Origin: Rhodospirillaceae bacterium
Lineage (GTDB): Bacteria; Pseudomonadota; Alphaproteobacteria; SHVZ01
Length of the DNA: 64,000 nt
Assembly: GCA_016792585.1 (NCBI GenBank)
Contig: JAEULB010000165.1
Location: 4,337 to 68,336, forward strand
Reading direction: 5' to 3'
Shown: positions 2,338-30,210 of the stretch, piece by piece
How the letters are laid out: every line of letters begins with the position of its first letter
How positions within the stretch are numbered: the first letter of the stretch is position 1
The notes under the pieces: model-generated
Told to the model about the DNA's origin: nothing
Database searches by the model: none
The model's input: only the letters and a program-made list of their open reading frames with translations
Made by a program: the position numbers and the translations under genes

Positions 2338-2340
2338 TCC

Positions 2341-7536: not shown

Positions 7537-7546
7537 GACCTAGTCA

Positions 7547-9139
7547 ATGGCGCTCTCCCTGATCCTGCGCAGTGGCACCGTCTATGACGGCACCGGCAAG
7601 CCCGCGGTCATCGCCGATGTCGCGATCGAAGACGGCAAGATCGCCGCGATCGGCAGGATCGATGGCAAAGCCGAGCGCGAGATCGATGCCAAGGGCCTGG
7701 CGGTCGCACCGGGGTTCATCGACATCCACAGCCACTCCGACTACACGCTGCTCTTGGATCCCCGCGCGGTCAGCGCCGTGCATCAGGGCGTGACGCTCGA
7801 GGTGATCGGCAATTGCGGCTTCGGCTGCGGACCGATCCGTCGGCCGGATCTCGCTCCGCAGGCGATCTACGGCTTCGACGGCAGCGTAGAGCTCTCCTGG
7901 AAGACGCTGGGCGGCTATCTCGACCGGCTTTCCTCGGTGAAGCCGGCGGTCAACGTGATCACGCTGGTGCCGAACGGTCAGCTCCGCCTCTCGACGATCG
8001 GCCTCTCCGACCAGCCGGCCAATCGCGAGCAGGTCTCGGCGATGCAGGATCTGCTGCGCGAGGGACTCTCCGACGGCGCCATCGGCTATTCGACCGGCCT
8101 CGAATACGCGACCGAGGTCGGCTGCGGCGAGGAAGAGCTGACCGCGCTCGCAAAGGTCGCCGGTAAGGCCGACGGTCTTTACGCGACGCATACCCGCGAC
8201 CGTGCCGCCAAGGCGCTGGAAGCGATCGAAGAAGGTATCCGTACCGGCCGCAACGCCGAGGTGCGGACCCAGGTCTCGCATCTGGTGCCCCGCAATACCG
8301 CCGATGGCGTGTTCGAGCGCTCGATCGAGCTGGTCGAGAAGGCGCGTGCCGGCGGCCAGGACGTGCGCTTCGACATGCACACGCGCCTCTACGGCACGAC
8401 CATGCTGCACACGATGCTGCCGCCCTGGGCCGGTGCCGGCGGCAAGGAGGCGGCGCGCGCCAACCTGCGCTCGAAGGAGGCGCGGCAGAAGATGCGGCAG
8501 TACCAGAGCATCCTCTCCAGCGTCGGCGACTGGAACCGCGTGGTCCTGCTCGACCTGCCGATCATGTCGGAGTATTCGCGGCGCAGTCTCGCGGACGTCG
8601 CGAAGGAGCGGGGCCAGGACGCCTATGACGCCGCCTTCGACATCATCGAGGCGACCTTAGACCTGCCGCGAAGCCCGATGGTAATCCTGCTGACATATAC
8701 CGAGAGGCAGCAGCAGGCGGTGTTCAGCCATTCGCTCTGCATGCCGGCATCGGATGCCACGACCCTTGCGCCGGATGGACCGCTCGGCGGCGCGGTCTTC
8801 CACGGCGCCTATACCTGGGCCTCGTGGTTCTGGCGCTTCATGGTGCGCGACACCAAGGCGCTTACCCCGGAAGACGCTGTCCACCGGATGACCGGCCTTC
8901 CGGCGGCGGTGCTCGACATCACAGATCGCGGCGTGCTCAAGCCCGGTGCGCGGGCTGATATTGCTGTCTTCGATCCGGCAACCTTCGGCGAGCGCGGCAC
9001 GACCTTCGAGCCGAACCTGCTGGCGACCGGCATGAAGCATGTCGTGGTCAACGGCGTGCTGACGCTCGCCGACGGCAAGCTGACCGGCCATCGCGGTGGC
9101 GAGGTGCTGCGCCGCAAGGGACAGCCGATCACGTTCTAG
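7547..9139 (+). CDS. N-acyl-D-amino-acid deacylase (D-aminoacylase) family amidohydrolase
   Basis: 530 aa. N-terminus ILRSGTVYDGTGKP...VAIEDGKIAAIG...GFIDIHSHSD matches the D-aminoacylase-type metal-dependent amidohydrolase pattern. Confidence 0.85.
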   Translation: MALSLILRSGTVYDGTGKPAVIADVAIEDGKIAAIGRIDGKAEREIDAKGLAVAPGFIDIHSHSDYTLLLDPRAVSAVHQGVTLEVIGNCGFGCGPIRRPDLAPQAIYGFDGSVELSWKTLGGYLDRLSSVKPAVNVITLVPNGQLRLSTIGLSDQPANREQVSAMQDLLREGLSDGAIGYSTGLEYATEVGCGEEELTALAKVAGKADGLYATHTRDRAAKALEAIEEGIRTGRNAEVRTQVSHLVPRNTADGVFERSIELVEKARAGGQDVRFDMHTRLYGTTMLHTMLPPWAGAGGKEAARANLRSKEARQKMRQYQSILSSVGDWNRVVLLDLPIMSEYSRRSLADVAKERGQDAYDAAFDIIEATLDLPRSPMVILLTYTERQQQAVFSHSLCMPASDATTLAPDGPLGGAVFHGAYTWASWFWRFMVRDTKALTPEDAVHRMTGLPAAVLDITDRGVLKPGARADIAVFDPATFGERGTTFEPNLLATGMKHVVVNGVLTLADGKLTGHRGGEVLRRKGQPITF

Positions 9140-9158
9140 AGCTTGAGGGGAGGGGACG

Positions 9159-11201: not shown

Positions 11202-11207
11202 GCGGCC

Positions 11208-11228
11208 CGCGGCCGGACTGCGGCCGCG
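11208..11228 (+). terminator. GC-rich hairpin after the operon (CGCGGCCG-gactg-CGGCCGCG); possible terminator
   Basis: 8-bp perfect stem starting 7 nt after the stop of CocE copy A. No T-tract follows. Confidence 0.35.
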
Positions 11229-11288
11229 ACCTGCGCGTTGAGGCCGGCACGCAGGCATTGCGGACGCTGATAAGTCCGGTAGATCGAT

Positions 11289-11306
11289 CCTCATAAGAAT
11301 ATGAGG
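11289..11306. promoter_or_regulatory. AT-rich palindrome CCTCATA-agaa-TATGAGG; candidate operator upstream of the ABC substrate-binding gene
   Basis: 7-bp perfect inverted arms in an otherwise GC-rich 260-bp spacer, about 160 nt upstream of ATG 11463. Confidence 0.3.
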
Positions 11307-11462
11307 CATGGCCGATCATCGAACGCCGCCCTAGACTTTTGATCGGAGGGGCAAAGTCCGGGCTCTCCTGAAGCGAAGCCCGGGTCGTGGCGACGGCAAA
11401 GCGTGCCGTCCTGGAGCCACGAACCGGCGCGACACCGGACGAGGTCAGCAGGGAGATCCGAC

Positions 11463-13010
11463 ATGAAGCCCACACGCATCCTGGCCGGTGCCGCTCTGGT
11501 CGCAGCGGTCTTGGCCGCCGGTTCCGCGCACGCCCAGAAGAAGGGTGGCGACATCACCGCGCTTCTCTATGCCGGCCTCAACAGCGTCGATCCGCACTTC
11601 ACCGGCACGTATCCCGCGCGCAGCATGATCCTGCCGATGTACGAGTCCTTGATGACGGTCGACGAGAATGGCGGGACGATCCCGCTGCTGGCCGAGAAGG
11701 CCGACATCTCGGCCGATGGCCTCACCTACACCTTCCCGCTCCGTAAGGGCGTCAAGTTCCACAACGGCAAGGAGATGACCTCCGCCGACGTCAAGGCGTC
11801 GATGGAGCGCTACGCCAAGATCAGCCCGGGCCGCGCCGCGATGGATCCAGTCGCCTCGTTCGAGGCGCCGGACAAGTACGTGTTCGTCATCAAGCTGAAG
11901 ACGCCGAGCGCCTCGTTCCTCGATCGTCTGGCGTCGCCGACGTCGCCTGCAACCATAATTCCCGAGGAAGAGGCGGCGAAGGAGGTCAACAAGACCGGCA
12001 ACATCTCGACGGGGCCGTTCCAGTTCGTCGAGTGGATCCCCGATAGCCACTTCCGCATCAAGCGCTTCGACGGCTTCGTCAAGCGCGACGTCCCCGGCGA
12101 GAAGATGACCGGCTATGGCGGACCGAAGACGGTCCACATCGACACCGTCACCTTCCGCGTCGTGACCGAGGCGTCCGCCCGCATCGCCGCGCTCGAGGCC
12201 GGCCAGGCGCACCTGGTCGAGGACGTGCCCGGTCCAGCGGCGGAGCGGCTCAAGAGCAACCCGAAGGTCAAGCTCTACGACATGCCGACCTTCCAGATGC
12301 CGGTGCTCTACTTGAACCACTCACTGGGGCCGACCAGCGACCTCAAGGTCCGCCAGGCGATCCAGGCGGCGGTCGACATGGAGGAGGCGATGGGTGCGGC
12401 CGCAGCCGGCGCGCCCTACGTGCTTCAGCACGCCTGGGTCTATCGCGGCCACGCGATGTATTCGGATGCCGGCAAGGCGCTCTACAACATCAATAACGTC
12501 GCCAAGGCAAAGGAGATCCTGAAAGGCTCCAGCTACAAAGGCGAGGAGATCGTCTTCAACGTCGGGAACCTCGGATTCATGACCCGGCTCGCGGTCGTGG
12601 TGCAGCAGGCGCTGAAGGAGACTGGCCTGAACGTCAAGGTCAACACGATGGACCTCGGCACGCTGTTCAGTATCTCCAACAAGGACGAGGCCTGGCACAT
12701 CACGACCTCGGGCTTCGGCTCGCAGCCCTTCCTCGGTCCCTACATGTACCAGCAGATCACCACGGGACCTGCGAACCTGGCGCGGCGCAAGGGCGACACC
12801 GCGCTCGAAGCCGCCTGGGCCAAGTTCGACGGCACGCGTGACATGGCCATCAAGCAGGCAGCCTGGAACGAGATCACCCAGCGCACCTATGACGAGGTCT
12901 ACTTCGTCAAGCTCGGCGACCTCGGCATGAAGTACGCGGCGGTCTCGAACCTCGCAGGCTTCCGCGCGTATCCCGGCTCGCTCCGCTTCTGGGACGCCTG
13001 GTTGGAATAG
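11463..13010 (+). CDS. ABC transporter substrate-binding protein, peptide/nickel family (family 5)
   Basis: ORF 11403..13010. Start at ATG 11463 gives the signal peptide MKPTRILAGAALVAAVLAAGSAHAQ. Followed by two Dpp/Opp-type permeases. Confidence 0.9.
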   Translation: MKPTRILAGAALVAAVLAAGSAHAQKKGGDITALLYAGLNSVDPHFTGTYPARSMILPMYESLMTVDENGGTIPLLAEKADISADGLTYTFPLRKGVKFHNGKEMTSADVKASMERYAKISPGRAAMDPVASFEAPDKYVFVIKLKTPSASFLDRLASPTSPATIIPEEEAAKEVNKTGNISTGPFQFVEWIPDSHFRIKRFDGFVKRDVPGEKMTGYGGPKTVHIDTVTFRVVTEASARIAALEAGQAHLVEDVPGPAAERLKSNPKVKLYDMPTFQMPVLYLNHSLGPTSDLKVRQAIQAAVDMEEAMGAAAAGAPYVLQHAWVYRGHAMYSDAGKALYNINNVAKAKEILKGSSYKGEEIVFNVGNLGFMTRLAVVVQQALKETGLNVKVNTMDLGTLFSISNKDEAWHITTSGFGSQPFLGPYMYQQITTGPANLARRKGDTALEAAWAKFDGTRDMAIKQAAWNEITQRTYDEVYFVKLGDLGMKYAAVSNLAGFRAYPGSLRFWDAWLE

Positions 13011-13039
13011 CGGCTAGGAGACGATCAGGGGGCCGGCCA

Positions 13040-13984
13040 ATGGGGCGGTACCTCGCTGGCCGACTTCTCTCGACGCTGATCGTCCTGGTCATCGTCAGCT
13101 TCATCTCGTTCTGCATCATGCAGATGGTGCCGGGCGACCCGGCGCTGGTCATGGCCGGCGCCGCGGCGCCGGCCGACGAGGTGCAACGCATCCGCGAGCA
13201 GTTCGGGCTCGACCAGCCCTTCCATGTGCAGATGCTCCGCTGGTACGCGGGACTGATCCAGGGCGATCTCGGCCAGTCGATCACGCTCAGCCGCTCGGTG
13301 GTCGCAGCGATCATCGAGCGCCTGCCATCGACCGTGGCGCTGGCCTGCTTCGCCTTCGTGCTGACCCTGGTCTTCGGCCTGGTCGCCGGCGTCGCCGCGG
13401 CGCTGAAGCAGGACAGCTGGATCGACCACGCGATCATGACGCTGGCGGTGGTCGGCGTTTCAGTGCCGAGCTTCTGGATCGGGCTGATCATGATCATCGG
13501 CTTCGCGGTCATGGTCGACTGGCTGCCGGCCGGCGGCTACATCACGATCGCCGAGAGTCCCGGCGGCTGGTTCAGGAGCCTGATCCTGCCGTCGATCGCA
13601 CTCGCCCTCCTGCAGATGGGGTTGCTCGCCCGCATCACCCGCGCCTCGATGATCGAGGTCCTGCGCCAGGACTTCGTCCGCACCGCCCAGGCCAAGGGCC
13701 TGCCGCGCTGGCTGGTGGTCGGCAAGCACGCCTTCATGAACGTGATGATCCCGGTCGTGACCGTGATCGGTATCGTCTTCAGCCTGCTGCTGTCGGGCTC
13801 GGTCGTGATCGAGACCGTCTTCTCGATCCCCGGCCTCGGCCGCCTGATGGCGACCTCTATCGTCACCCGCGACTATCCCGTGATCCAGGGAGCGCTGCTG
13901 ATCACGGCCGCGATGTTCGTCCTGATCAACCTCGCCGTCGACGTTCTCTATGCCTACCTTGACCCTCGCATCCACTACGACTGA
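13040..13984 (+). CDS. ABC transporter permease (DppB/OppB-like)
   Basis: 314 aa. N-terminus MGRYLAGRLLSTLIVLVIVSFISFCIMQMVPGDP is the canonical DppB-type start. Confidence 0.9.
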   Translation: MGRYLAGRLLSTLIVLVIVSFISFCIMQMVPGDPALVMAGAAAPADEVQRIREQFGLDQPFHVQMLRWYAGLIQGDLGQSITLSRSVVAAIIERLPSTVALACFAFVLTLVFGLVAGVAAALKQDSWIDHAIMTLAVVGVSVPSFWIGLIMIIGFAVMVDWLPAGGYITIAESPGGWFRSLILPSIALALLQMGLLARITRASMIEVLRQDFVRTAQAKGLPRWLVVGKHAFMNVMIPVVTVIGIVFSLLLSGSVVIETVFSIPGLGRLMATSIVTRDYPVIQGALLITAAMFVLINLAVDVLYAYLDPRIHYD

Positions 13985-14846
13985 GGCCGCCGCGCGCCGC
14001 TCGCGGTGGCGGAACAGCGCGATCTACCGGATCGCGCGGCATCGCATGGCGATGATCGGTCTCGTCTTCTGCGTCGCAGCCCTTCTGATGGCGCTGTTCG
14101 CCGACGTGCTGGCGACGCATCATCCGGAGCGGACGCGGATCCGCGACGCCTTCCAGGCGCCGTCGCCTGCGCATGTGCTCGGGGCCGACCATCTCGGCCG
14201 CGACATCTGGAGCCGCGTCGTTTTCGGCTCCCGGATCTCGATCGGCATCGGCGTCGCCACCGTGGTGCTGACCGGCGTGATCGGCGCCGCCTTCGGTCTC
14301 GTCTCGGGATACTTCCGCCAGCTCGACGATCCCCTGATGCGCGTGATGGACGCGTTGATGGCCTTTCCCGGAGTCATGCTCGCGGTCGCGGTGACAGCCG
14401 CTTTGGGTCCATCCGCCGTCAATGTCGTGATCGCGCTGACCGCGGTCTATGTGCCGCGAACGGCGCGGATCGTCCGCGCCTCGGTGCTGGTGGTGCGCGA
14501 GATGGACTACGTCCAGGCGGCCAAGGCGCTCGGCGCCGGCCATGCCCGCATCATCCTCCGCCACATCCTGCCGAACTCGCTGGGCCCGCTTGTGGTCCAG
14601 CTCACCTTTGTCTTTGCCTATGCGGTGCTGTCGGAGGCGGCCTTGAGCTTCCTCGGCATGGGGCCGCCGCCGCCGACGCCGACCTGGGGAAACATCATCT
14701 CCGACGGCCGCGACTATCTGAGAGAGGCGCCCTGGATCTGCCTCTATCCAGGGCTCGCGATCTCGGTCACCGTGCTCGGCCTGAATCTTCTCGGCGACGG
14801 ACTCCGCGACGTGCTCGATCCCAGGATGAAGGTGACGCAGGGCTAG
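13950..14846 (+). CDS. ABC transporter permease (DppC/OppC-like)
   Basis: 298 aa. WRNSAIYRIARHRMAMIGLV... matches the DppC-type N-terminus. The start is uncertain: ATG 13950 overlaps the upstream gene by 35 nt. Confidence 0.85.
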   Translation: MPTLTLASTTTEAAARRSRWRNSAIYRIARHRMAMIGLVFCVAALLMALFADVLATHHPERTRIRDAFQAPSPAHVLGADHLGRDIWSRVVFGSRISIGIGVATVVLTGVIGAAFGLVSGYFRQLDDPLMRVMDALMAFPGVMLAVAVTAALGPSAVNVVIALTAVYVPRTARIVRASVLVVREMDYVQAAKALGAGHARIILRHILPNSLGPLVVQLTFVFAYAVLSEAALSFLGMGPPPPTPTWGNIISDGRDYLREAPWICLYPGLAISVTVLGLNLLGDGLRDVLDPRMKVTQG

Positions 14847-15784
14847 AACTTCACCCGATCGCCGCCCTTGAGCTGCAGGATCTGGCGCGCCTCGTCCGGC
14901 GTCGCGATCTCGAGCGACAGTGTCTCCAGCACGTGGCGGATCTTCTTCACTTGGTCGGCATTGCTCTTCGCGAGCTCGCCCTTGCCGACATAGATCGAGT
15001 CTTCCATGCCGACACGGACGTTGCCGCCCATCATCGCACCCATGGTGCAGAGCGACATCTGGTGACGGCCGGCGGCGAGGATCGACCACTGGTAGTCGCC
15101 GAACAGCCGGTCGGCGGTACGCTTCATGTGCTGCAGATCTTCCGGGTGCGGGCCGATGCCGCCCAGGATGCCGAAAATTGTCTGCACGAACAGCGGCGGC
15201 TTGATCAGCTTGCGGTCGAGGAAATGCGCCAGCGTATAGAGGTGGCCGACGTCGTAGCATTCGCACTCGAAGCGCACGCCGTGACCCTCGCCCAAGTCCT
15301 TCATGAACCGCTCGATCTGGCCGAAGGTGTTGCTGACGATCGAGTCCTTGGTCTTCTCGAGGTAGGGCTTCTCCCAGGGGTGCTTCCAGTCCTTGATCTT
15401 GTCGGTGATCTGGAAGAGGCCGAAGTTCATCGAGCCCATGTTGAGCGAGCAGATCTCGGGGCTGGCGCGGAGCGGGGCGGCGAGCCGGTCCTCGATCGAC
15501 ATGCCGAGGCTGCCGCCGGTCGTGATGTTCACCACCACGTTTGAGGCCTGCTTGATCCGGGGCAGGAACTGCATGAACACGTTCGGATCCGGGGTTGGGC
15601 TCCCGTCCGGGTTGCGGGCATGCAGGTGGACGATGGCCGCGCCGGCTTCTGCCGCCGCGATCGAGTCGGCGGCGATCTGGTCCGGCGTGATCGGCAGATA
15701 GGGCGTCATCGTCGGGGTATGGATCGAGCCGGTGACGGCGCAGGTGATGATGACCTTGCGGCCGGCGGGCTTGGCGGTGCTCAT
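14843..15784 (-). CDS. 3-keto-5-aminohexanoate cleavage enzyme family (BKACE, DUF849)
   Basis: 313 aa. KVIITCAVTGSIHTPTMTPYLPITPDQIA...AAIVHLHARNP is the BKACE signature N-terminus. Confidence 0.85.
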   Translation of the reverse strand: MSTAKPAGRKVIITCAVTGSIHTPTMTPYLPITPDQIAADSIAAAEAGAAIVHLHARNPDGSPTPDPNVFMQFLPRIKQASNVVVNITTGGSLGMSIEDRLAAPLRASPEICSLNMGSMNFGLFQITDKIKDWKHPWEKPYLEKTKDSIVSNTFGQIERFMKDLGEGHGVRFECECYDVGHLYTLAHFLDRKLIKPPLFVQTIFGILGGIGPHPEDLQHMKRTADRLFGDYQWSILAAGRHQMSLCTMGAMMGGNVRVGMEDSIYVGKGELAKSNADQVKKIRHVLETLSLEIATPDEARQILQLKGGDRVKF

Positions 15785-15912
15785 CTCGGGGGCTCCACGT
15801 CTCGGGAAGGGCTCTTCGCCGTACAGGCTAGATGCTTTTTGACTTGCCCGTCCAACCTTCCCGGCTACCCTGCGAAATTGCTCCCCAAGCCCCTGCCAGA
15901 CGGAGATTGCTC

Positions 15913-17229
15913 ATGACCGCCGCCCGCTCGATCAACGCGGATGTCGCCGAGGCGCTGGAAGAGGCGAAGGCCAACTACGCCAAGGTCAACCCGAAGAGTC
16001 GGGCGGTCCATGCAAAGGCGCTGAAGAGCCTTCCCGGCGGCAACACCCGGACCGGCATCTTCTTCGACCCGTTCCCCATCGCCTGGGAGCGGGGAGAGGG
16101 CGCGCGGCTGTTCGATGCCGACGGCCACAGCTATGTCGACTTCATCTCGGAAGCGACCGCCGGCATCTACGGCCACAGCCATCCCGGCATCAAGAAGGCG
16201 ATCGAGGATCGTATGGCACTCGGCTGGAACCTCGGCGGCCACACTGCCCTCGAGAGCGAGCTCGCTGAGATCATCATCGACCGCTTCCCCTCGATCGAGC
16301 GGCTTCGCTTCGTCAATTCCGGGACCGAAGCCAACATGTTCAACGTCCAGGTTGCCCGCGTCGCGACCGGCCGGCCGGCGGTCATGGGCTTCAACGGCTG
16401 CTACCACGGCGGCTTCCTCACCTTCACCGCGGCGACCAATCCTCTGAACGTGCCGTTCGAGACCGTGGTCGGCAATTACAACGACGTCGAGGGCACGCGC
16501 GCCCTGATGGCGAAGAACGCCAGCCGCCTCGCCGCCGTGATCTTCGAGCCGATGCTGGGCGGCGGCGGCTGCATTCCGGCGACCCCTGAGTTCCTGAAGA
16601 TGCTGCGCGAGGAGTCGACGAAGCACGGCATCGTCATGATCATGGACGAGGTCATGACCTCGCGGCTGTCTTCCGGCGGCCTGCAGAAGCATACCGGCGT
16701 GATCCCGGACCTGACCTCGCTCGGCAAGTACATCGGCGGCGGACTTCCGGCCGGCGCCTTCGGCGGCAAGGCCGAGTTCCTCGATCGCTTCGATCCGCGC
16801 AAGTCCGACGCACTGCCGCATTCCGGCACCTACAACAACAACGTGATGACGCTCGCCTGCGGCATCGCCGGTCTCGGCAAGATCTACACCAAGGAAGCGG
16901 CGACGACCCTGAATGCCCGCGGCGACGGGCTCCGCAAGCGGCTCAGCGCCGTCTGCGACAAGGCCGGCGTCGGCATGCAGTTCCTCGGCATCGGCTCGAT
17001 GCTCGCCGTTCACATGCAGCGGGGCGACATCAAGACTCCCGAGCAGGCAGCCAAGGGCAATGCCAAGCTGCGCGAGCTCTTCTTCTTCGACCTGCTGGAG
17101 AAGGGAGTCCACGTCATGCCGAAGCGCGGCATGCTGGCGCTCTGCCTGCCGCTGACCGATGCCGATTTCGACACGCTGGTCGCCGCGGTCGAGGAGTTCG
17201 TCCAGGTCCGGCGCTCGCTGTTCGATTGA
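15913..17229 (+). CDS. Class-III (omega / GSA-aminomutase-like) PLP aminotransferase
   Basis: ORF 15832..17229. Start at ATG 15913 (SD GGAGA). Contains MDEVMTSRL and a SLGKYIGGG PLP-lysine region. Confidence 0.9.
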   Translation: MTAARSINADVAEALEEAKANYAKVNPKSRAVHAKALKSLPGGNTRTGIFFDPFPIAWERGEGARLFDADGHSYVDFISEATAGIYGHSHPGIKKAIEDRMALGWNLGGHTALESELAEIIIDRFPSIERLRFVNSGTEANMFNVQVARVATGRPAVMGFNGCYHGGFLTFTAATNPLNVPFETVVGNYNDVEGTRALMAKNASRLAAVIFEPMLGGGGCIPATPEFLKMLREESTKHGIVMIMDEVMTSRLSSGGLQKHTGVIPDLTSLGKYIGGGLPAGAFGGKAEFLDRFDPRKSDALPHSGTYNNNVMTLACGIAGLGKIYTKEAATTLNARGDGLRKRLSAVCDKAGVGMQFLGIGSMLAVHMQRGDIKTPEQAAKGNAKLRELFFFDLLEKGVHVMPKRGMLALCLPLTDADFDTLVAAVEEFVQVRRSLFD

Positions 17230-17231
17230 AC

Positions 17232-18773
17232 ATGACGTCGGCCGGCCGCGTCAGGGGCGGACGCCAGGCGCGGCAGGCGCAGCGGGCGGGTGCGACCGGC
17301 GCGCCTGCCGTCGTTCCCGGCATCAAGCGCGCCATCCCGACCTACGACCTTTTTGGCGAGGAGGGGCTCGTCCGGATTGAAGCGGCGATCGATACGCTGC
17401 TGCAAGAGATCGGCATGGAGTTCCGCGGCGATCCGCCGAGTCTCAAGCTCTGGCGCGACGCCGGCGCCGACGTAGAGGGCGAGCGCGTGCGCTTCCCGAA
17501 AGGCCTGGTGCGGGACATCGTCCTGCGTTCCACGCCGAAGAGCTTTGTCCATCACGCCCGCAACCCGGCGCGGTCGGTCGTGGTCGGCGGAAACAACGTC
17601 GTCTTCTCGCCGGCCTACGGCTCGCCCTTCGTCTACGACATCGACGAGGGCCGTCGCTACGGATCGCTCGAGCATTTCCAGAACTTCGTGAAGCTCGCTT
17701 ATGCGTCGCCCTGGATGCACCACTCGGGCGGCACGGTGTGCGAGCCGGTGGACCTGCCGGTGAACAAGCGCCATCTCGACATGGTCTACTCCCATATCCG
17801 CTGGTCCGACAAAGCCTTCATGGGCTCGGTCACGGCGGAGGAGCGGGCGGAGGAGTCGATCGAGATGGCGCGTCTCGTGTTCGGCACCGACTTCGTCGAT
17901 CGCAACTGCGTCATCATGGGCAACATCAACGTCAACTCGCCGCTCGTCTACGACGCGGCGATGAGCAAGGCGGCCAGGGCCTATGCGCGCGCCAACCAGT
18001 GCACGGTCGTCGTGCCCTTCATCCTCGGCGGCGCCATGGGGCCGGTGACGACGGCCGGTGCCATCGCCCAGTCGATGGCCGAGGCCATGGTCGGCGTCGC
18101 CCTGTGCCAGCTGGAGCGACCCGGGTCGCCGGCGATCCTGGGAAATTTCCTCTCGTCCACGGCACTCCGCTCGGGTGCACCGACCTTCGGCACGCCGGAG
18201 CCGGCACTGGGCTCGCTCGTAATCGGCCAGCTCACGCGCCGTCTCGGCGTGCCGCTCCGCTGCTCCGGCGCCTTTACGACCTCGAAGATTCCCGACGGGC
18301 AGGCGATGCTGGAAAGCGCCGTCTCGATGCAGGCCGCCGTCCAATGCGGCGCGCATTTCATCCTGCACTCGGCCGGCTGGCTCGAAGGCGGGCTGGCGAT
18401 GGGCTACGAGAAGTTCATCCTCGACGCGGACTTCTGCAGTGCGCTCCACACCTATCTCGCCGGCATTCCGCTGGACGACAACGGGTTAGCCCTGGACGCC
18501 TTCCGCGAGGTCGGTCCGGGCAAGCATTTCTTCGGCTGCGCCCACACGCTCCAGAACTACGAAACCGCCTTCTGGGACTCGGCGATCGCCGACAACAATT
18601 CCTTCGAGCAATGGCGCGATGCTGGCAGCAAAGACGTGATGCGGCGCGCCAACGAGAAGTGGCGTGCCATGCTGCAGGCCTACGAAGCGCCGCCGCTGGA
18701 TCCCGGCATCGACGAGGCCTTGCGGGCCTTCATGGCGAAGACGAAGGAATCTCGCCCCGACGCCTGGCACTGA
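17232..18773 (+). CDS. mttB: Trimethylamine methyltransferase (MttB) superfamily protein, non-pyrrolysine type
   Basis: About 513 aa, uninterrupted (no in-frame TAG). Arg-rich N-terminus then PTYDLFGEEGLVRIEAAIDTLLQEIGMEF...NPARSVVVGGNNVVFSPAYGSPFV, typical of MttB homologues. ATG lies 2 nt after the aminotransferase stop. Confidence 0.85.
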   Translation: MTSAGRVRGGRQARQAQRAGATGAPAVVPGIKRAIPTYDLFGEEGLVRIEAAIDTLLQEIGMEFRGDPPSLKLWRDAGADVEGERVRFPKGLVRDIVLRSTPKSFVHHARNPARSVVVGGNNVVFSPAYGSPFVYDIDEGRRYGSLEHFQNFVKLAYASPWMHHSGGTVCEPVDLPVNKRHLDMVYSHIRWSDKAFMGSVTAEERAEESIEMARLVFGTDFVDRNCVIMGNINVNSPLVYDAAMSKAARAYARANQCTVVVPFILGGAMGPVTTAGAIAQSMAEAMVGVALCQLERPGSPAILGNFLSSTALRSGAPTFGTPEPALGSLVIGQLTRRLGVPLRCSGAFTTSKIPDGQAMLESAVSMQAAVQCGAHFILHSAGWLEGGLAMGYEKFILDADFCSALHTYLAGIPLDDNGLALDAFREVGPGKHFFGCAHTLQNYETAFWDSAIADNNSFEQWRDAGSKDVMRRANEKWRAMLQAYEAPPLDPGIDEALRAFMAKTKESRPDAWH

Positions 18774-18780
18774 GGTTGGG

Positions 18781-21195
18781 TCAGATCCTCATCCGCGCGC
18801 CCATGGGATCGTAGGGGGACGGCGCGATGACCTTCGCCTTCCGCTCGATGCCGACGACATGGGTCGTGAGATCGGTGCCGACTGCAGCATGATCGCGGTC
18901 GATCAGCGCCATGCCGATGCTCTTGCCGATCGTGTGCCCATAGGCGCCGGACGTGATGTAACCGATCATCCTGTCGCCCCGCCATACAGGCTCCCAGCTT
19001 GACGGATCGGCGTCCCCGGCGGCGACCTCCAGCGTCACGAGCTGGCGCTTAGGCCCGGCGTCACGTTCTTTAAGCGCCGCGTCCCTGCCGATGAAGTCCT
19101 TCTTGCCGAAGTCGATCCAGCGCGCGAGCCCGGTCTCTCCCGGCGTATAGACCTGCGTGAACTCGCGGTTCCAGAGCCCGAACGACTTCTCGATGCGGAG
19201 GCTCAGCATGGCGTTGAAGCCGATCTCGACCATGCCGAAATCGGCGCCTGCCTCCTTGAGCGTGCGATAGAGCGTCAGGTGCTCGGCCGCGGGTACGTTG
19301 ATCTCGTACCCCAGCTCGCCATTGACCGAGAGCCGGCCGACCTTGGCGCGGGTCATGCCGACATCGAGCTCGCGGCACCCGAGGAAGCGGAAACCCTGGT
19401 TCGAGACGTCGGCGTTCTGCACCACCGCCTGGAGCAGGTCGCGCGAGCGCGGGCCAGAGAGCGAGAAGCCGACCCAGTCGTCGGAGATGTCTCGGACGCT
19501 GACGCCATCCTCGAGGTGATCCCGGAACCAGCGCATATGCCAGGCGCGGAGATAGTAGGACCCCATGATCCAGAAGCTGCCGTCGCCCCAGTTGAACACC
19601 GAGAGGTCGCCTCGGAGCTTGCCGGACGGCGACAGCATCGGCGCCAGCGCGCAACGGCCCGGGCCCGGCAGCTTCGAGGCCATGAGGCGGTCGAGCCACG
19701 CCTGGGCCTTCGGTCCCGTCACCTCGTAGCGCGAGAAGGCCGAGGTATCGAGCAGGCCGATCGTCTCGCGGGTCTTCCGGCACTCCTCGCCGACGATGTC
19801 ATGGGCGTTCGAGCGCTTGAGCGTCGGCTTCTCCTCGAAATCCTTAGACGGTGCCACATAGAGCGGGATCTCGAGGCCCCAGAGCACGCCCCAGCGCATG
19901 CCGTTCTCGGTCATCGCGTCGTATGCAGGCGCGGTCTTGAGCGGCCGGCCGGCCCAGAGCTGTTCGTTCGGGTAGGTCATGACGAAGCGGCGAGAATAGA
20001 ACTGGCCGGTCGTCTGCTTGAGATACTCACGGTTGGATGCCCAGCCGCCGTAGCGGGCGATGTCCATGCCGTAGATATCGGTCGATGGCTCGCCGTTGAC
20101 CATCATTTCGGCGAGGCTGAGCCCCACGCCGCCGCCCTGGAGGAAGCCCGCCATCACGCCGCAGGCGGTCCAGTAGTTGCGCACGCCCGGCGCCGGGCCG
20201 ACCAGCGGATTGCCGTCCGGCGTGAAGGTGAAGGAGCCGTTGACCCACTTCTTGATGCCGACCTGCTGGAGGGCAGGGAAGCGCCTGAAGCCGATCTCGA
20301 GCTCCGGCGCGATCCGGTCGATGTCCTCCTGGTTCAGCTCGATGCCGAAGTCCCAGGGGGCGCCTTCCATGCGCCAGTGCTTGTAGTTGCGCTCGTAAAG
20401 GCCGACCAGCAGGCCTTTGCCTTCCTGGCGCGTATAGGTGAAGCCCTCGAGGTCGACGATCAGCGGCAGCTCGGAGCCCATCGCCGCGATCTCCGGGATC
20501 GTCTCGGTCACCAGGTAGTGGTGCTCCATCGGCGTCACCGGCAGGTCCAGTCCTGCCATCAGGCCCACCTGCTTGGCCCAGAGGCCGCCGCAGTTGACCA
20601 CGTGCTCGCAGCCGATCGTGCCCTTCTCGGTCACCACGTCCCAGCCGCCCGGCTTCTGCTTCAGCTCCAGCACGCGGGCATGCTCGATGATCGTGGCGCC
20701 ACGCTTCCGGGCGGCGCCGGCATAGGCGTAGGTTGTGCCGTAGGTGTCGACGTGCCCTTCGTTGACGTCGTAGAGCCCGCCCAGAACGTCGCTGACGTCC
20801 ATCAGCGGGTGCATCGCCTTGATCTCGTCGCGTGTCACCAGCCGGGCGGTGTCGATGCCCATGGTCTGGAAGATCCGGTAAGCCGCCTGCAGCCACTCCC
20901 AGCGTTCGGGCGCGCTGGCGACGTTGATGCCGCCGGTCATGTGCAGCCCGACGTCCTGGCCCGACTCGGCCTGGATCTCCTTGAACAGCTTGATCGTGTA
21001 GGCTTGGAGCGCGGCGATGTTCGGGTCGGCGTTCAGCGCATGGAAGATACCCGCCGCGTGCCAGCTCGAGCCCGAAGTCAGCACGTTCCGCTCGACCAGG
21101 GCGATGTCGGTCCAGCCGAGTTTCGCCAGGTGGTACAGAACCGAGCAGCCGACGACGCCGCCGCCGATCACCACGACCCGATAGTGCGATTTCAT
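18781..21195 (-). CDS. Dimethylglycine/sarcosine dehydrogenase-like flavoprotein (FAD DAO domain fused to a GcvT-type folate-binding aminomethyltransferase domain)
   Basis: 804 aa. N-terminal VVVIGGGVVGCSVLYHLAKLG dinucleotide fold. The C-terminal half has GcvT character (SGELGYEI-like NGELGYEINVP). Confidence 0.9.
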   Translation of the reverse strand: MKSHYRVVVIGGGVVGCSVLYHLAKLGWTDIALVERNVLTSGSSWHAAGIFHALNADPNIAALQAYTIKLFKEIQAESGQDVGLHMTGGINVASAPERWEWLQAAYRIFQTMGIDTARLVTRDEIKAMHPLMDVSDVLGGLYDVNEGHVDTYGTTYAYAGAARKRGATIIEHARVLELKQKPGGWDVVTEKGTIGCEHVVNCGGLWAKQVGLMAGLDLPVTPMEHHYLVTETIPEIAAMGSELPLIVDLEGFTYTRQEGKGLLVGLYERNYKHWRMEGAPWDFGIELNQEDIDRIAPELEIGFRRFPALQQVGIKKWVNGSFTFTPDGNPLVGPAPGVRNYWTACGVMAGFLQGGGVGLSLAEMMVNGEPSTDIYGMDIARYGGWASNREYLKQTTGQFYSRRFVMTYPNEQLWAGRPLKTAPAYDAMTENGMRWGVLWGLEIPLYVAPSKDFEEKPTLKRSNAHDIVGEECRKTRETIGLLDTSAFSRYEVTGPKAQAWLDRLMASKLPGPGRCALAPMLSPSGKLRGDLSVFNWGDGSFWIMGSYYLRAWHMRWFRDHLEDGVSVRDISDDWVGFSLSGPRSRDLLQAVVQNADVSNQGFRFLGCRELDVGMTRAKVGRLSVNGELGYEINVPAAEHLTLYRTLKEAGADFGMVEIGFNAMLSLRIEKSFGLWNREFTQVYTPGETGLARWIDFGKKDFIGRDAALKERDAGPKRQLVTLEVAAGDADPSSWEPVWRGDRMIGYITSGAYGHTIGKSIGMALIDRDHAAVGTDLTTHVVGIERKAKVIAPSPYDPMGARMRI

Positions 21196-21264
21196 CTCGT
21201 TCCCAAGCCCCCGAACTGGCTACTGTACGAGCCTAGCCAATTCGAACTCCACCTGAGGATCGCC

Positions 21265-22239
21265 TTGTCTTCAACGAAATTCGCCATGGTCGCCACGACC
21301 GGGAACGAGCGCCATCTCAGGACGATGAAGCAGATCGGCGTGGACCATGTCGTCCACTACGCGATGGACGACCTGCCCGAGTCGGCCGACGACCTGAAGG
21401 CGATCCGGCGCCGCTATGCGGATTTCGGGCTGACCTGGTCGATCGCCGAGTCAGGGCCTGCGATCGATCGGATCGTTCTGGCCAAGGAGGGCTGGCAGGC
21501 GCAGACCGAGCGCTACCAACGCATCGTCGAGGTTCTGGGCGATCTCGGCGTCGGCGTCGTCGCCTACAACTTCATGCCGCAGGTCAGCGATGACGCGATG
21601 GTGATCCGGACCGACCTGGAGGCCAAGGCACGAGGCGGGGCCAAGACCAGCCGCTTCGCTCTCGCCGACATCGGCCCCGACACCATGCCGCATGACGAGA
21701 AGGCGATCCCCCGCGACGAGATGTGGCGGAACCTGGAGCGCTTTCTCGAAGCATTACTGCCGGTCGCCGAGAAGGCAGGGGTCAAGATGGCGATGCACCC
21801 GGACGACCCGCCGATGTCGCCGCTCTGCGGGCTCGAGCGGATCATGGACCGGGTCGAGAGCTTCGAGCGTCTCCTGGCGCTGTCGCCGAGCCCGAGCAAT
21901 GCGGTCACCTTCTGCGCCGGCTGCTTCGGCGAGCTCGGCGTCGACGTGGTCGCGCTGTTCGAGAAGTTCATCGACCGCGTGCCTTACGTTCACGTCCGCA
22001 ACATCGAAGGCGGGCCGACCGACTTCATGGAGACCTTCCCGGACGAGGGCCGTATCGACCTCCCGGGGCTGGTCGGCGCGTTCGAGAAGCGCAGCTTCGC
22101 CGGTTTCGTCCGCCCCGACCATGCGCCGCTGCTCGCGACCGACGGCGACGACATGCCGGCCGGCTACGGCATCCAGGGTCATATTTTCACCATCGGCTAC
22201 ATGCGCGGCCTGCAGCAGGCCACCTCTCGACGGCGGTGA
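21265..22239 (+). CDS. Mannonate-dehydratase (UxuA) family protein, short form
   Basis: This is the C-terminal third of track ORF 19279..22239; upstream of it that ORF is the antisense shadow of the dehydrogenase gene. YNFMP, MHPDDPP and RPDH motifs align with UxuA. Start proposed at TTG 21265 (SD GAGGA 5-6 nt upstream); alternative ATG 21286. Confidence 0.7.
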   Translation: MSSTKFAMVATTGNERHLRTMKQIGVDHVVHYAMDDLPESADDLKAIRRRYADFGLTWSIAESGPAIDRIVLAKEGWQAQTERYQRIVEVLGDLGVGVVAYNFMPQVSDDAMVIRTDLEAKARGGAKTSRFALADIGPDTMPHDEKAIPRDEMWRNLERFLEALLPVAEKAGVKMAMHPDDPPMSPLCGLERIMDRVESFERLLALSPSPSNAVTFCAGCFGELGVDVVALFEKFIDRVPYVHVRNIEGGPTDFMETFPDEGRIDLPGLVGAFEKRSFAGFVRPDHAPLLATDGDDMPAGYGIQGHIFTIGYMRGLQQATSRRR

Positions 22240-23474
22240 ACGACACACCGCCAGTCCCGGGGGGCGAGGACGGCTCGCCCCGATGGCGTGCGACGCTGAT
22301 GGCGATGGTCGCCGTCCAGCTGGTCATGAGCCTCTCGTTCACCTTCGTCAGCCCGATCCTGCCGCTGTTCTTGCCGGAGGTCGGTGTTGCCCATGACGCG
22401 CACGTCTATCTGTGGTCGGGCACGCTCGCAGCAATCACCTCGTTCATGGCGGCGCTGGTTTCGCCGATGTGGGGCCGCATGGCGGACCGGCGCGGGCGCA
22501 AGCTGATGGTGCTCCGCTCCTGCATCGCGATCGGCGTCTGCACGGTGTTGATGGGGCTGGCGCAGAACGTCTGGCACCTGCTCGGGGCGCGGGTCCTGAT
22601 GGGCATCTTCGCCGGCTTCTCCGCCGCCTCGGTGGTCCTCATCTCGACCCAGGTGCCGAAGAACCGTCTGGGCTATGCCCTCGGCCTGATGAGCAGCGGC
22701 CAGCTGATCGGATCCTTGCTGGGGCCGGTGTTCGGCGGAGGTCTCGCCGACCTTGCCGACAGCTACCGACTGCCGTTCTTCGTCAGCGGCGTGATGTCGC
22801 TTGCGGCGGCCGTGCTCTGCTGGTGGTCGGTGCCCGAAGCCTTCACGCCGCCTGAGCGCGGCAAGCCGAAAACGCCGGTGCTGGTGGCGCTTCGCCAGGT
22901 CGGCGCGGTACCCGGCATGGCGGTCCTGGTCGTGATGCTGTTCCTCGCCCAGTTCGCGACCCAGGCGGTTCAGCCGATCGTCGCGCTCTACGTGCAGACC
23001 ATCGTCGGAGACCAGCCGAACCTGGCGACCCTGGGCGGTATCGCGTTGTCGGTGACGGGCCTTGCCGGCATCGTCGCGGTCCCCCTTCTTACCCGGTCCG
23101 GCGACCGGCTCGGCGAGAAGACGGTGCTCTTGATCGCGCTCGCCGGCGCGGCGCTGGCGACCGCGCCGCAGGCGCTTGTCGGGTCGTATTGGGCTTTCGT
23201 CGTCGAACGTCTCGGCCTCGGCCTCTTCGTCGGCAGCATCGTTCCAGTCACAAACGCGCTGATCGCCAAGGTCACGCCCGCCAGCGAGCGCGGCATGACC
23301 TTCGGCATCACGTCCTCCGCCTATTTCCTCGGCAATTCGCTGGGCCCGATGACCGGCGGCGTGGTCGCGGCCTATGCCGGCCTGCCCTGGGTCTTCGTGC
23401 TGACCACGGCCTTCCTCCTGGTCGGGCTTACCTGGGTCGCGGCCGCGGTACCGGGGCGAGGAGAGGCTCCCTAG
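22236..23474 (+). CDS. MFS transporter
   Basis: Part of ORF 21723..23474. GTG 22236 overlaps the UxuA-like stop (GTGA). About 12 TM segments; MGRMADRRGRK resembles MFS motif A. Confidence 0.85.
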   Translation: MNDTPPVPGGEDGSPRWRATLMAMVAVQLVMSLSFTFVSPILPLFLPEVGVAHDAHVYLWSGTLAAITSFMAALVSPMWGRMADRRGRKLMVLRSCIAIGVCTVLMGLAQNVWHLLGARVLMGIFAGFSAASVVLISTQVPKNRLGYALGLMSSGQLIGSLLGPVFGGGLADLADSYRLPFFVSGVMSLAAAVLCWWSVPEAFTPPERGKPKTPVLVALRQVGAVPGMAVLVVMLFLAQFATQAVQPIVALYVQTIVGDQPNLATLGGIALSVTGLAGIVAVPLLTRSGDRLGEKTVLLIALAGAALATAPQALVGSYWAFVVERLGLGLFVGSIVPVTNALIAKVTPASERGMTFGITSSAYFLGNSLGPMTGGVVAAYAGLPWVFVLTTAFLLVGLTWVAAAVPGRGEAP

Positions 23475-25489
23475 ACGTTGTCCCTCGGGATCGACTCCTT
23501 CCAGTTCTTGGCGAAGACGCGGACTCCGTTCTCGAAGGCGTCGAGCGTCGCATCCAGTTCGAAGCTCGTCGGCGTCGCCGTCATCACCGTCCGGCACTCG
23601 GTCTCGATCTCCCAGTCCTTCCGTGCGTAGCGGCTCTTGGAGGTGACCTCGGCGCGGGCCTGCGACGGCTCGCTCGGGTGGATCGAGAAGTCGTCCTGCA
23701 TCCGGCTCGACGTCTCGAGGCCGATGCCGTCGATCAGCGTCGTGCCGCTGTCGTTGACGAAGACGTAGCGAAGCGCGCCGGTCGGCCGGTCGCGTGTGTG
23801 GGTCTGGGTGACCTCGCCCTTCTTGATCGTCGTCGTCTTCAGGACTTCCGGCAACTCGTGCGGCGGCAGCGGCTTAAGTTTGGCATCGTGAGGCGAGGCG
23901 CCCCGGACAGGCAGGACCAGGGCGCTGCCCTCGGAGCGGATCGTCAGCGTCGCCGCTTCCGGCGACGGCCAGGCGAGCGGCCAGTAGGTCGTCGAGATCG
24001 AGACCCGGATGCGATGGCCGGCCGGGAAGACCTGCGCCATGTCGTTGAGCTTGACCTTCACCCGATAGGGCTTGCCCGGCGCCAGTGGCGCCGGGGTCTC
24101 GTGGCTGTCGCGATGAGTCAGGTTGAGAAGTCCGTAGCTGATCCGCGTCGCGGCTCCGCCCGGATACACGTTCGAGAGCCGGACGGCGACCAGCGCCTGC
24201 GGCTTGTCGGAGGAGACTTCCAGTTCGACGATGGGCGCGCCCATGATCTCGACCGCCTGGGCAAGCGGCTCAGTGTCGAACACCAACGATCCGCCGTCGT
24301 CGTCGCGCTGGTCTCCGGGCATGTCTGGGAAGAGGCCGTAGGGGCACCATTTGCCGATCGTCTGGCCGACCGTCTGCGGCGAGCGGATCGAGGAGGCCTC
24401 GGCGCGGGCGGGCCCCGTCGAGAGCCGGCCGGCGTTCATGCTGTAGCGGGTCGGCGTCACGCTTGGCGGGGGCCATGACGGCTCGGCGACCCAGCGGCCG
24501 GGAAGCTCCTTGTAGAAGGTCTGCGGGGGCACGCTTTCCTGCATCCAGATCCGCATCATGGGTTCGTCCATGACGCCGGTCTCGACGCCCTTCAGCCACT
24601 TGTCCCACCAGCGGAGCGCTTCCTTGAGGAACCCGACCGGCGGACCTGGATTCGCCATGTGCGGATAGCGGTGGGCCCACTGGCCGATCATCGCCTTCTT
24701 CGGCCCCGATAGATTCTCCATGAGCCTGGGGATCGCGTTGGTGTAGGCATCAGCCCAGCCGCCGATCGCATAGACTGCGCACTGGATCTTCGAATAGTCC
24801 TCGCAGACCGAGCCGTGCTTCCAGAACTCGTCGCGGCGCTGATGCTCGAGCCAGTTCTTGACCCAGAGCCCGCTGTTCTCGAGCCGGTCCATCCACATGT
24901 CGCGCCAGCGCTCGCCGACCACGGTCGGATCCGGCGGCCGGGCGTTGTGCGAGAACATCGTGGACGCCCAGCGCAGATTGTCGTTGATGACGCAGCCGCC
25001 CATGTAGTGGACGTCGTCGGCGTAGCGATCGTCGGTCGAGCACGAGGTGATGATGGCTTTCAGCGCCGGCGGACGGAGCGCCGCGATCTGCAATCCGTTG
25101 AAGCCGCCCCACGAGTTGCCGATCATCCCGACATTGCCCGAGCACCACTTCTGCCGGGCGATCCAGGCGATTATCTCGACGCCGTCGTTCAGTTCCTGGG
25201 CCAGGTACTCGTCGACCAGAACGCCGTCGGAGTCGCCCGACCCCCGCTGGTCGACGCGGATGCAGGCATAGCCGTGGCCGGCGATGTAGGGGTGCATCAG
25301 GGCGTCGCGGGTCGCGGTCCCGTCGCGGCGTCGGTAGGGGAGGTACTCCAGGATCGCCGGCACCGGGTTCGTCTCGGCGTCGTCCGGCATCCAGACCCGG
25401 GCGGCCAGGCGGGCGCCGTCACTTAAGGTGATCCACATCGTCTCGATTTCCCGCACGCTCCGCGGGAAGGACTTCACGATCACGGTCAT
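23471..25489 (-). CDS. CocE/NonD family hydrolase, copy B
   Basis: C-terminal 672 aa of track ORF 23471..27655. Starts MTVIVKSFPRSVREIETMWITLSDGARLAARVWMPDDAETNPVPAILEYLPYRRRD. Nucleophile elbow GNSWGG. Confidence 0.85.
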   Translation of the reverse strand: MTVIVKSFPRSVREIETMWITLSDGARLAARVWMPDDAETNPVPAILEYLPYRRRDGTATRDALMHPYIAGHGYACIRVDQRGSGDSDGVLVDEYLAQELNDGVEIIAWIARQKWCSGNVGMIGNSWGGFNGLQIAALRPPALKAIITSCSTDDRYADDVHYMGGCVINDNLRWASTMFSHNARPPDPTVVGERWRDMWMDRLENSGLWVKNWLEHQRRDEFWKHGSVCEDYSKIQCAVYAIGGWADAYTNAIPRLMENLSGPKKAMIGQWAHRYPHMANPGPPVGFLKEALRWWDKWLKGVETGVMDEPMMRIWMQESVPPQTFYKELPGRWVAEPSWPPPSVTPTRYSMNAGRLSTGPARAEASSIRSPQTVGQTIGKWCPYGLFPDMPGDQRDDDGGSLVFDTEPLAQAVEIMGAPIVELEVSSDKPQALVAVRLSNVYPGGAATRISYGLLNLTHRDSHETPAPLAPGKPYRVKVKLNDMAQVFPAGHRIRVSISTTYWPLAWPSPEAATLTIRSEGSALVLPVRGASPHDAKLKPLPPHELPEVLKTTTIKKGEVTQTHTRDRPTGALRYVFVNDSGTTLIDGIGLETSSRMQDDFSIHPSEPSQARAEVTSKSRYARKDWEIETECRTVMTATPTSFELDATLDAFENGVRVFAKNWKESIPRDNV

Positions 25490-25570
25490 CGGTTCGCCTC
25501 GTCTGCCATTCGATTGCGCAAGGCCGCCGGCTTGGCTCAAACTGCTAAGGAAACGGGGCCGGGGGAAGCG

Positions 25571-30194: not shown

Positions 30195-30210
30195 CGGCTA
30201 TCCTCGGAGC

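Follow-up and report, generated by a model that had tools for sequence, protein, structure and literature searches.

An MttB-family methyltransferase gene in an operon with a beta-transaminase gene: a probable paralogue of aerobic MtgB in an alphaproteobacterial genome

Introduction

In aerobic Ruegeria pomeroyi, the pfam06253 protein MtgB demethylates glycine betaine together with the corrinoid protein MtgC and the pterin-binding protein MtgD (Mausz et al. 2025, PMC12478193). In that work, which drew on genetics and proteomics, mtgC and mtgD lie at separate loci and are also essential to a split methionine synthase (PMC12478193). Up to seven pfam06253 open reading frames (ORFs) occur per genome, for which action on other methylated compounds was suggested, and in Eubacterium one corrinoid protein is common to several MttB-family enzymes (PMC12478193). 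In Phaeobacter inhibens, where mtgB1 has been knocked out, mtgB2-4 were called 'related uncharacterized methyltransferases', and cobalamin-dependent and Rieske routes for glycine betaine coexist (bioRxiv 10.64898/2025.12.19.695462). The substrates of such extra MtgB paralogues were named as an open problem in papers of 2025 (PMC12478193; bioRxiv 10.64898/2025.12.19.695462). Here we describe an MttB homologue encoded at positions 17232-18773 of a 64-kb stretch of contig JAEULB010000165.1 (assembly GCA_016792585.1, Rhodospirillaceae bacterium). This whole stretch is the window, and coordinates refer to it unless another contig is named. In our view the protein is probably a paralogue, so far uncharacterised, of the cobalamin-dependent MtgB of aerobes, sharing partners encoded at unlinked loci and standing next to a flavoprotein that resembles dimethylglycine dehydrogenase (DMGDH).

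The likeness to the aerobic MtgBCD systems of R. pomeroyi and P. inhibens has several sides. In both cases a pfam06253 protein without pyrrolysine (Pyl) is found in an alphaproteobacterial genome of aerobic type with no adjacent corrinoid gene, DMGDH-type N-demethylation enzymes are encoded nearby, several paralogues per genome are to be expected, and relatives of the window protein adjoin mtgC, mtgD, RACo and DUF1638 genes, which is the same accessory set. Unlike its counterparts there, the window protein belongs to a subclade that is Phe-type, not Leu-type, at the residue aligned with Pyl, and its gene forms one operon with that of a beta-transaminase. A second parallel, one of principle, is provided by MtpB, MtcB, MtyB and MthB of Eubacterium limosum, paralogues that act on different quaternary amines (proline betaine, carnitine, gamma-butyrobetaine and phosphocholine, respectively) with one common corrinoid protein. 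These come from an anaerobic acetogen, however, and none has been reported with a beta-transaminase or BKACE partner.

Results

Family and active site of the MttB homologue

The MttB homologue gene (17232-18773, plus strand) is the second gene of a two-gene operon and encodes 513 aa. The product matches PF06253 with 735.6 bits, against a cutoff of 25, over profile positions 2-498 of 500, and on this full-length match it is assigned to the MttB superfamily. The reading frame is uninterrupted, without an in-frame TAG, and the Pyl334 of Methanosarcina MttB (7XCL) aligns with Phe348. The initial annotation of the window, made from the DNA letters and their translations, had described the protein as an MttB-family member lacking pyrrolysine, and both parts of that description hold. 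A Pyl-type trimethylamine methyltransferase MttB is ruled out, as there is no UAG and the score against TIGR02369, 247 bits, stays below the cutoff of 525. Among solved structures, the protein matched 4YYC (E = 1.8e-185), the MtgB structures 2QNE and 9YCE (E = 1e-115) and the MttB structure 7XCL (E = 9e-33). In alignments it is 55% identical to the Sinorhizobium meliloti protein of 4YYC and 40% identical to MtgB of D. hafniense. An exact look-up of its sequence returned no record. At its N-terminus (17232-17310) is an Arg/Gly/Ala-rich tail of ~30 residues, MTSAGRVRGGRQARQAQRAGATGAP..., and a similar tail occurs in 4YYC and in relatives of the same lineage and none in D. hafniense MtgB.

D. hafniense MtgB (2QNE, 9YCE), a glycine betaine:corrinoid methyltransferase, binds glycine betaine through Tyr97, Arg312, His348 and Phe356 (PMC13080624). 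The window protein belongs to the same fold family and keeps three of these four residues, both carboxylate-binding ones included, with Tyr97, Arg312 and His348 corresponding to Tyr129, Arg343 and His379. It differs at the fourth, where Phe356 is replaced by Gly387, with Trp383 nearby, one turn earlier. It differs also in its setting: the D. hafniense gene is part of an anaerobe's mtgBC-type cluster, and the window gene is an orphan. An F356L variant of D. hafniense MtgB has a Km raised ~800-fold (PMC13080624). The change from Phe356 to Gly is seen, however, across the whole proteobacterial and actinobacterial clade, homologues linked to corrinoid genes among them, and we rejected it as a mark of new chemistry. 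The active-site signature of the window protein, Y-R-x-H-W-E-G-G (Tyr129, Arg343, His379, Trp383 and Glu-Gly-Gly at 385-387), is the same as in homologues that adjoin corrinoid genes. Within the clade, the window protein falls in a subclade that has Phe at the Pyl position, and the other subclade carries Leu there.

Corrinoid partners in the window and among relatives

When all credible ORFs of the 64 kb, those in the gaps included, were scanned with Pfam, none gave a B12-binding, Pterin_bind, RACo, DUF1638 or MTHFR domain. This agrees with the initial annotation, in which no B12-binding protein or methylcobalamin:THF methyltransferase could be recognised in the window. When the ORFs of all six frames were searched with a regular expression for the B12-binding motif (DxHxxG...SxL...GG), the one match lay inside the gene at 23471-25426, which Pfam identifies as Peptidase_S15, and was put down to chance. 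The lack of a linked partner is not anomalous, because unlinked MtgC and MtgD are already documented in aerobes. The initial annotation had set the gene apart from characterised members of the superfamily on the ground that these always adjoin a corrinoid gene. That premise was too strong, given the corrinoid protein shared by the Eubacterium enzymes (PMC12478193), and the accompanying view, by which these proteins still lack a resolved role in aerobes, has been overtaken by the description of MtgB from aerobic Ruegeria (PMC12478193).

A scan that kept one genome per species returned 80 loci with MttB relatives at 56-96% identity. Their ORFs were clustered, recurrent clusters were annotated with Pfam, the loci were searched by tblastn, and genes were counted within 10 kb of the MttB homologue. 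A RACo-type corrinoid activator was present at 26 of the 80 loci, a Pterin_bind protein at 23, and a B12-binding protein with the DxHxxG...SxL...GG motif at 19. A PF13769 ('Virulence_fact') protein also occurred at 19 and a DUF1638 protein at 17. At least one of the B12-binding, Pterin_bind, RACo and DUF1638 proteins was encoded at 32 loci, which is a lower bound, as many contigs are short. A DMGDH-like gene was found near the MttB homologue at 25 of the 80. Phe-type relatives at 61-68% identity lie inside complete mtgC-DUF1638-PF13769-mtgD-RACo clusters in five metagenome-assembled genomes (MAGs) of Acidimicrobiia (L017, L021, L024, L025 and L070) and in one Stappiaceae MAG (L037), and L010 holds another member of the Phe-type subclade near mtgC. 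In other genomes, then, MttB homologues have mtgC, mtgD, RACo and DUF1638 genes as physical neighbours, as in a system of the MtgBCD type. The gene order in the Acidimicrobiia clusters (~1300-11500 in each) is mtgC, DUF1638, PF13769, mtgD, RACo, Leu-type MttB, a gap, and Phe-type MttB. Two paralogues, one Leu-type and one Phe-type, are apparently served by a single corrinoid protein in these Actinomycetota.

The conserved active site, the corrinoid-linked relatives and the literature together argue that the window protein is corrinoid-dependent, and that the gene for its B12-carrying partner most likely lies at another place in the genome. Of the two possibilities offered by the initial annotation, that of an unlinked corrinoid protein is well supported by the work on MtgBCD and by the 32 loci above. 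That of an undescribed chemistry has no support, three of the four betaine residues and the whole signature being retained.

The operon and its flanking genes

Genes in the window, which is ~66% G+C, were called from third-position G+C and then confirmed with Pfam. Four core genes were found where the initial annotation had put them, with the BKACE gene divergent and the FAD/GcvT enzyme convergent, and their families are supported by Pfam, NCBIfam and PDB matches. All four are under purifying selection, with dN/dS of 0.03-0.32 at dS of 0.33-0.56 in comparisons with orthologues. Reading of the junction within the operon gave the arrangement already proposed, in which the TGA of the aminotransferase gene (17227-17229) is followed by a 2-nt spacer and the MttB ATG at 17232. 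The MttB and DMGDH-like genes are convergent and their stops are 7 nt apart. The five neighbouring genes make up at least four transcription units, and the only operon is that of the aminotransferase and MttB.

The class-III aminotransferase gene (15913-17229, plus strand; PF00202) is the first of the operon. Its longest ORF runs from 15832, and translation more probably begins at the ATG at 15913, preceded by GGAGA, for a protein of 438 aa that has the N-terminus MTAARSIN... in common with the orthologue on L081. Its best match in the PDB is 4AO9, the beta-Phe aminotransferase of Variovorax (E = 1.8e-130), followed by the beta-transaminases 6IZ9 and 2YKU (~6e-129). Against glutamate-1-semialdehyde (GSA) aminomutases, the E-value is only about 1e-63. 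Equivalents of Arg54 and Arg412 of MesAT and the pyridoxal phosphate (PLP) lysine in GKYIGGG are kept, and the motifs PGGNTR, GKYIGGG and P(K)RG are conserved. By its closest relatives and these residues, the protein is classed as a beta-transaminase of the MesAT/VpAT type. It thus resembles the enzymes of Mesorhizobium sp. LUK (2YKU) and Variovorax paradoxus (4AO9) in sequence (E ~1e-130), PLP lysine and arginines, but neither of those is known to be encoded alongside an MttB homologue or a BKACE, and the substrate of the window enzyme may be aliphatic. Beta-transaminases convert beta-amino acids to beta-keto acids, the substrate class of BKACE. The initial annotation had seen in these genes an amine-catabolic set, which is a reasonable view and one that the beta-transaminase identity sharpens.

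The BKACE gene (14843-15784, minus strand) is monocistronic. It converges with a permease gene and diverges from the aminotransferase gene, with an intergenic region of 128 bp (15785..15912) between the latter and itself. The product scores 349 bits against PF05853 and 518.6 bits against NCBIfam NF053538 (3,5-dioxohexanoate:acetyl-CoA acetone transferase; cutoff 430), and with a score above the curated cutoff it is placed in the NF053538 equivalog class. PDB matches include 3E02 (E = 5e-130) and BKACE15 of Paracoccus denitrificans (8RIO, E = 5e-114). BKACE15 (8RIO, 8RIP, 9HNF) is a close homologue in the same equivalog class, but its genomic context suggested aromatic degradation, not amine catabolism (PMC11961710). 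It cleaves beta-ketohexanoate, 3,5-dioxohexanoate and beta-ketopentanoate with acetyl-CoA and, in a non-native reaction, forms formyl-CoA and acetoacetate from malonate semialdehyde; no physiological role is assigned to BKACE15 (PMC11961710).

The DMGDH-like gene (18781-21195, minus strand) encodes 804 aa with the domains DAO, FAO_M, GCV_T and GCV_T_C, the full DMGDH architecture of an FAD oxidoreductase, FAO_M and a folate-binding GcvT part. Rat and human DMGDH are its best solved relatives (E ~1e-155), and none of the NCBIfam equivalogs attained its cutoff with this protein. It is 27-53% identical to the DMGDH-like proteins encoded beside other MttB homologues, a spread that points to several DMGDH-like subfamilies.

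Searches for regulatory elements gave little. No riboswitch, cobalamin or other, matched Rfam at gathering scores, and a promoter and terminator scan of 14500-22000 returned nothing exceeding the shuffled expectation. An operator shared by the BKACE/beta-transaminase and DMGDH/MFS intergenic regions was considered and dropped as too weak, only one 14-nt element being common to both. This element, TyCCCAAGCCCCyG (2 mismatches), occurs at 15882-15895 and 21200-21213, directly upstream of the beta-transaminase and DMGDH-like starts. As it is not oriented alike with respect to the two genes, it is probably due to chance.

Conservation of the neighbourhood

Contigs of the lineage came from a scan of genomes (L001-L003) and from a scan of metagenomes queried with the aminotransferase (L081-L087). 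BKACE, beta-transaminase, MttB and DMGDH-like genes occur together only on these contigs, where MttB is 90-97% identical to the window protein. Wherever the contig extends that far, BKACE lies upstream and the DMGDH-like gene downstream of the beta-transaminase-MttB operon. The same three importer genes precede BKACE in L001, L081 and L086, and the MFS gene that follows the DMGDH-like gene keeps its position in L001, L002, L081, L083 and L086. The closest relatives are MAGs of unclassified Alphaproteobacteria, and next, at 77%, come MAGs of Dongiaceae, so that the attribution to Rhizobiales made in the initial annotation is not established. MAG JAYRJL01 has a 96% identical MttB, on a contig of 841 kb. 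The conservation it had asked about, that of a five-gene neighbourhood, is found within one narrow alphaproteobacterial lineage and not beyond it.

Within the lineage, the aminotransferase-MttB junction takes three forms: a TGATG overlap in five contigs, a spacer of 2-3 nt in two (the window included), and a distance of ~50 nt with GGGAGG in three. Counting overlaps and spacers of 2-3 nt together, stop and start are this close in 7 of 11 members of the lineage, which indicates that beta-transaminase and MttB are co-translated. The dS of 0.33-0.56 and the low dN/dS point to genomes that have diverged and are subject to purifying selection.

The operon is longer in the relatives than in the window. 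In 10 of 10, a gene of the phosphotriesterase (PTE) family (PF02126) lies directly upstream of the beta-transaminase gene (for example L081 5750-6802 and L001 7504-8553). A tblastn search with the PTE protein matches all ten and nothing in the 64-kb window, and the PTE-family gene was accordingly rejected as part of the window's system. With PTE in every relative but only 128 bp at this place here, the window appears to derive, by deletion, from a PTE-beta-transaminase-MttB operon. L001 and L002 have an extra solute-binding protein (SBP) gene in the BKACE/beta-transaminase interval. On L087, an ORF for a Rieske-type oxygenase alpha subunit (1684-2973, plus strand; CRHRG...CPYHSW) lies between the beta-transaminase and MttB genes. 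Rieske enzymes such as GbcA, Stc2 and CntA are O2-dependent betaine N-demethylases. The L087 ORF may represent an O2-dependent alternative to a B12-dependent first demethylation, and, its type being that of betaine demethylases, the insertion lends modest support to a methylated-amine role of the operon.

More distant relatives have other neighbours. Those of the MttB relatives at 70-78% identity (L004-L008) were discarded as a substrate clue, being heterogeneous and unrelated. Phe-type MttB genes at 64-67% identity are followed directly by a gene for an Oxidored_FMN + Pyr_redox_2 flavoprotein in L011 (1904-3955), L016 (11467-13494) and L017 (11575-13617). N-methylproline demethylase and trimethylamine dehydrogenase have this architecture, which suggests that those three copies act on a substrate like proline betaine.

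Other genes of the window

Upstream of BKACE are genes of a Dpp/Opp-type ABC importer: a family-5 solute-binding protein (11403-13010, plus strand; SBP_bac_5) and two permeases (13040-13984 and 13950-14846, both plus strand; BPD_transp_1, OppC_N). No ATPase genes follow these importer genes (11403..14846), which may encode a carrier of the substrate. Divergent from the DMGDH-like gene is an MFS transporter gene (21723-23474, plus strand; MFS_1), whose start codon is uncertain, as the Pfam match starts only at residue 197. Two divergent genes for CocE/NonD (peptidase S15) hydrolases follow (23471-25426, minus strand, and 25427-27598, plus strand; Peptidase_S15 + PepX_C, TIGR00976), and a third S15 copy lies at 9159-11201 on the plus strand.

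S15 hydrolase genes also recur among the relatives. Steroidobacteraceae-like MAGs (L022 3-12562, with L019, L027 and L015 similar) share a recurrent MttB-containing set, made up of a TonB-receptor fragment, an S15 (CocE/NonD) hydrolase, a POT peptide transporter, a Rieske oxygenase on the minus strand, a DMGDH-like protein, MttB and an AraC-type regulator. S15 genes lie close to DMGDH-MttB pairs in L019, L022 and L027; in L023 one adjoins the MttB gene. Together with the three S15 paralogues and the Dpp-type importer of the window, these sets hint that some substrates of the clade are freed from small peptides or esters.

The window as a whole is a dense block of genes for the catabolism of nitrogen compounds and organic acids. 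It includes two hydantoinase/oxoprolinase A+B gene pairs (3617-7536, plus strand, and 47389-51347, minus strand), an amidohydrolase (7544-9139), an M20 peptidase (29019-30197), a second Dpp/Opp system (30211-34887), and TRAP (725-3624) and TTT (54231-57183) transporters. An ORF of 214 aa at 34820-35464 on the minus strand has a strong coding signal (third-position G+C, GC3, of 0.89) and no Pfam match at E <= 0.001.

Discussion

The route we propose would begin with the binding of a carboxylate-bearing quaternary ammonium compound, a betaine, by the MttB homologue. The enzyme would move one N-methyl group onto the Co(I) form of the corrinoid protein MtgC, and MtgD, a pterin-binding methyltransferase, would transfer it from MtgC to tetrahydrofolate. 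MtgC, MtgD and a reductive activator would be encoded elsewhere and be common to other MttB paralogues and to methionine synthesis, which would account for the lack of a partner in the window. The adjacent DMGDH-like flavoprotein would most likely remove the next methyl group oxidatively onto folate. Both the order of the demethylation steps and the substrate are what we infer from these parts.

The operon partner invites an extension of this scheme. As MttB is co-translated with a beta-transaminase beside a BKACE gene, the substrate could be an N-trimethylated beta-amino acid, a tentative suggestion to which we give a modest chance. Full demethylation would then leave a beta-amino acid, transamination would turn it into a beta-keto acid, and BKACE with acetyl-CoA would cleave this to acetoacetate and an acyl-CoA. 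BKACE15 accepts C5-C6 beta-keto acids as well as malonate semialdehyde, a range that would suit the skeletons of 3-aminopentanoate, 3-aminohexanoate or beta-alanine. Candidate substrates, all of them doubtful, would be beta-alanine betaine or a C5-C6 3-(trimethylammonio)alkanoate. That the operon, in its wider form (PTE)-beta-transaminase-(Rieske)-MttB, makes up with BKACE and the DMGDH-like enzyme an undescribed aerobic cobalamin-dependent route for an N-trimethylated beta-amino acid is a proposal we think rather unlikely to hold in full.

Several observations weigh against the proposed route or its extension. The linkage of beta-transaminase and BKACE to MttB is limited to contigs where MttB is at least 90% identical. 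MttB relatives at 70-78% stand in unrelated contexts (genes of the 2-oxoglutarate oxygenase, DHDPS, ATP-grasp and IF-2B families), and beta-transaminase relatives at 73-76% are found without MttB and BKACE where the contig permits a view. The BKACE and DMGDH-like genes are transcription units of their own, and the window gives no sign of a third demethylase close to the operon. The position of Phe356 is occupied by Gly387, whose bearing on specificity is ambiguous, the substitution being clade-wide. Finally, the presence of MtgC and MtgD in the source genome is presumed, the search having covered the 64-kb window, where neither occurs.

The main rival is an ordinary glycine-betaine route. In such a route, MttB would be an MtgB isozyme converting betaine to dimethylglycine, the flavoprotein a true DMGDH carrying this on to sarcosine, and the corrinoid partner would again be encoded elsewhere. 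An arrangement in which MtgB is followed by the later enzymes of glycine-betaine demethylation has been reported for many aerobic bacteria (PMC12478193), the flavoprotein matches mammalian DMGDH (E ~1e-155), and the glycine-betaine site retains its Tyr, Arg and His. A DMGDH-like gene is, moreover, beside MttB at 25 of 80 loci, as against beta-transaminase and BKACE in only one lineage. These last two would then belong to an unrelated beta-amino-acid pathway and be neighbours by accident. Yet it is to the beta-transaminase gene, not the DMGDH-like gene, that MttB is translationally coupled, a link preserved throughout the lineage. Those homologues whose contexts are typical of glycine betaine (GlxA/GbdR-like regulator, ProV, BetA, mtgCD) are 57-60% identical to the window protein and Leu-type, and the occurrence of Phe-type and Leu-type paralogues in one Acidimicrobiia mtgCD cluster implies different substrates. 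A sarcosine oxidase or dehydrogenase gene is also not evident in the 64-kb window. We therefore judge the ordinary route, with its accidental neighbours, to be unlikely, though its chance is appreciable.

Two further explanations carry much less weight with us. If MttB, beta-transaminase, BKACE and DMGDH-like genes were independent of one another, their co-occurrence would reflect only the recent common ancestry of a few genomes. The synteny is indeed seen only where MttB is at least 90% identical, the region is prone to rearrangement (the window has lost PTE, L001 and L002 have acquired an SBP gene, and L087 has the inserted Rieske ORF), and the surrounding 64 kb is full of unrelated hydrolases, hydantoinases and transporters. 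Against such chance juxtaposition, which we consider very improbable, stand the overlaps and near-overlaps of stop and start in most lineage members, a sign of co-translation, a gene order that outlasts dS of ~0.5 and several insertions and deletions, and the demethylase-type family to which the inserted L087 gene itself belongs. Even less credible to us is a corrinoid-independent chemistry, be it direct methyl transfer to tetrahydrofolate or another acceptor or a reaction that transfers no methyl group. It could appeal to the corrinoid-free 64 kb and to the Phe356-to-Gly difference from D. hafniense MtgB, but the active-site signature matches that of homologues encoded beside mtgC, mtgD and RACo, all characterised members of the superfamily are corrinoid-dependent (PMC12478193, PMC13080624), and an unlinked partner is an arrangement already documented in aerobes.

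An MttB homologue without a linked partner in a genome of aerobic type is the documented norm for MtgBCD and raises no new question. What is new here, and speculative, is the substrate hint given by the lineage-specific beta-transaminase-MttB operon. The locus is one of few MtgB paralogues with an informative operon partner, and as such it provides a substrate hypothesis that can be tested. If a beta-amino-acid betaine were the substrate, this would add a new substrate class and specificity to the MttB superfamily and would extend what is known of the need for B12 among aerobic heterotrophs. This class of BKACE and the MesAT-type beta-transaminases, two families mostly known from biocatalysis screens, would also gain a natural role.

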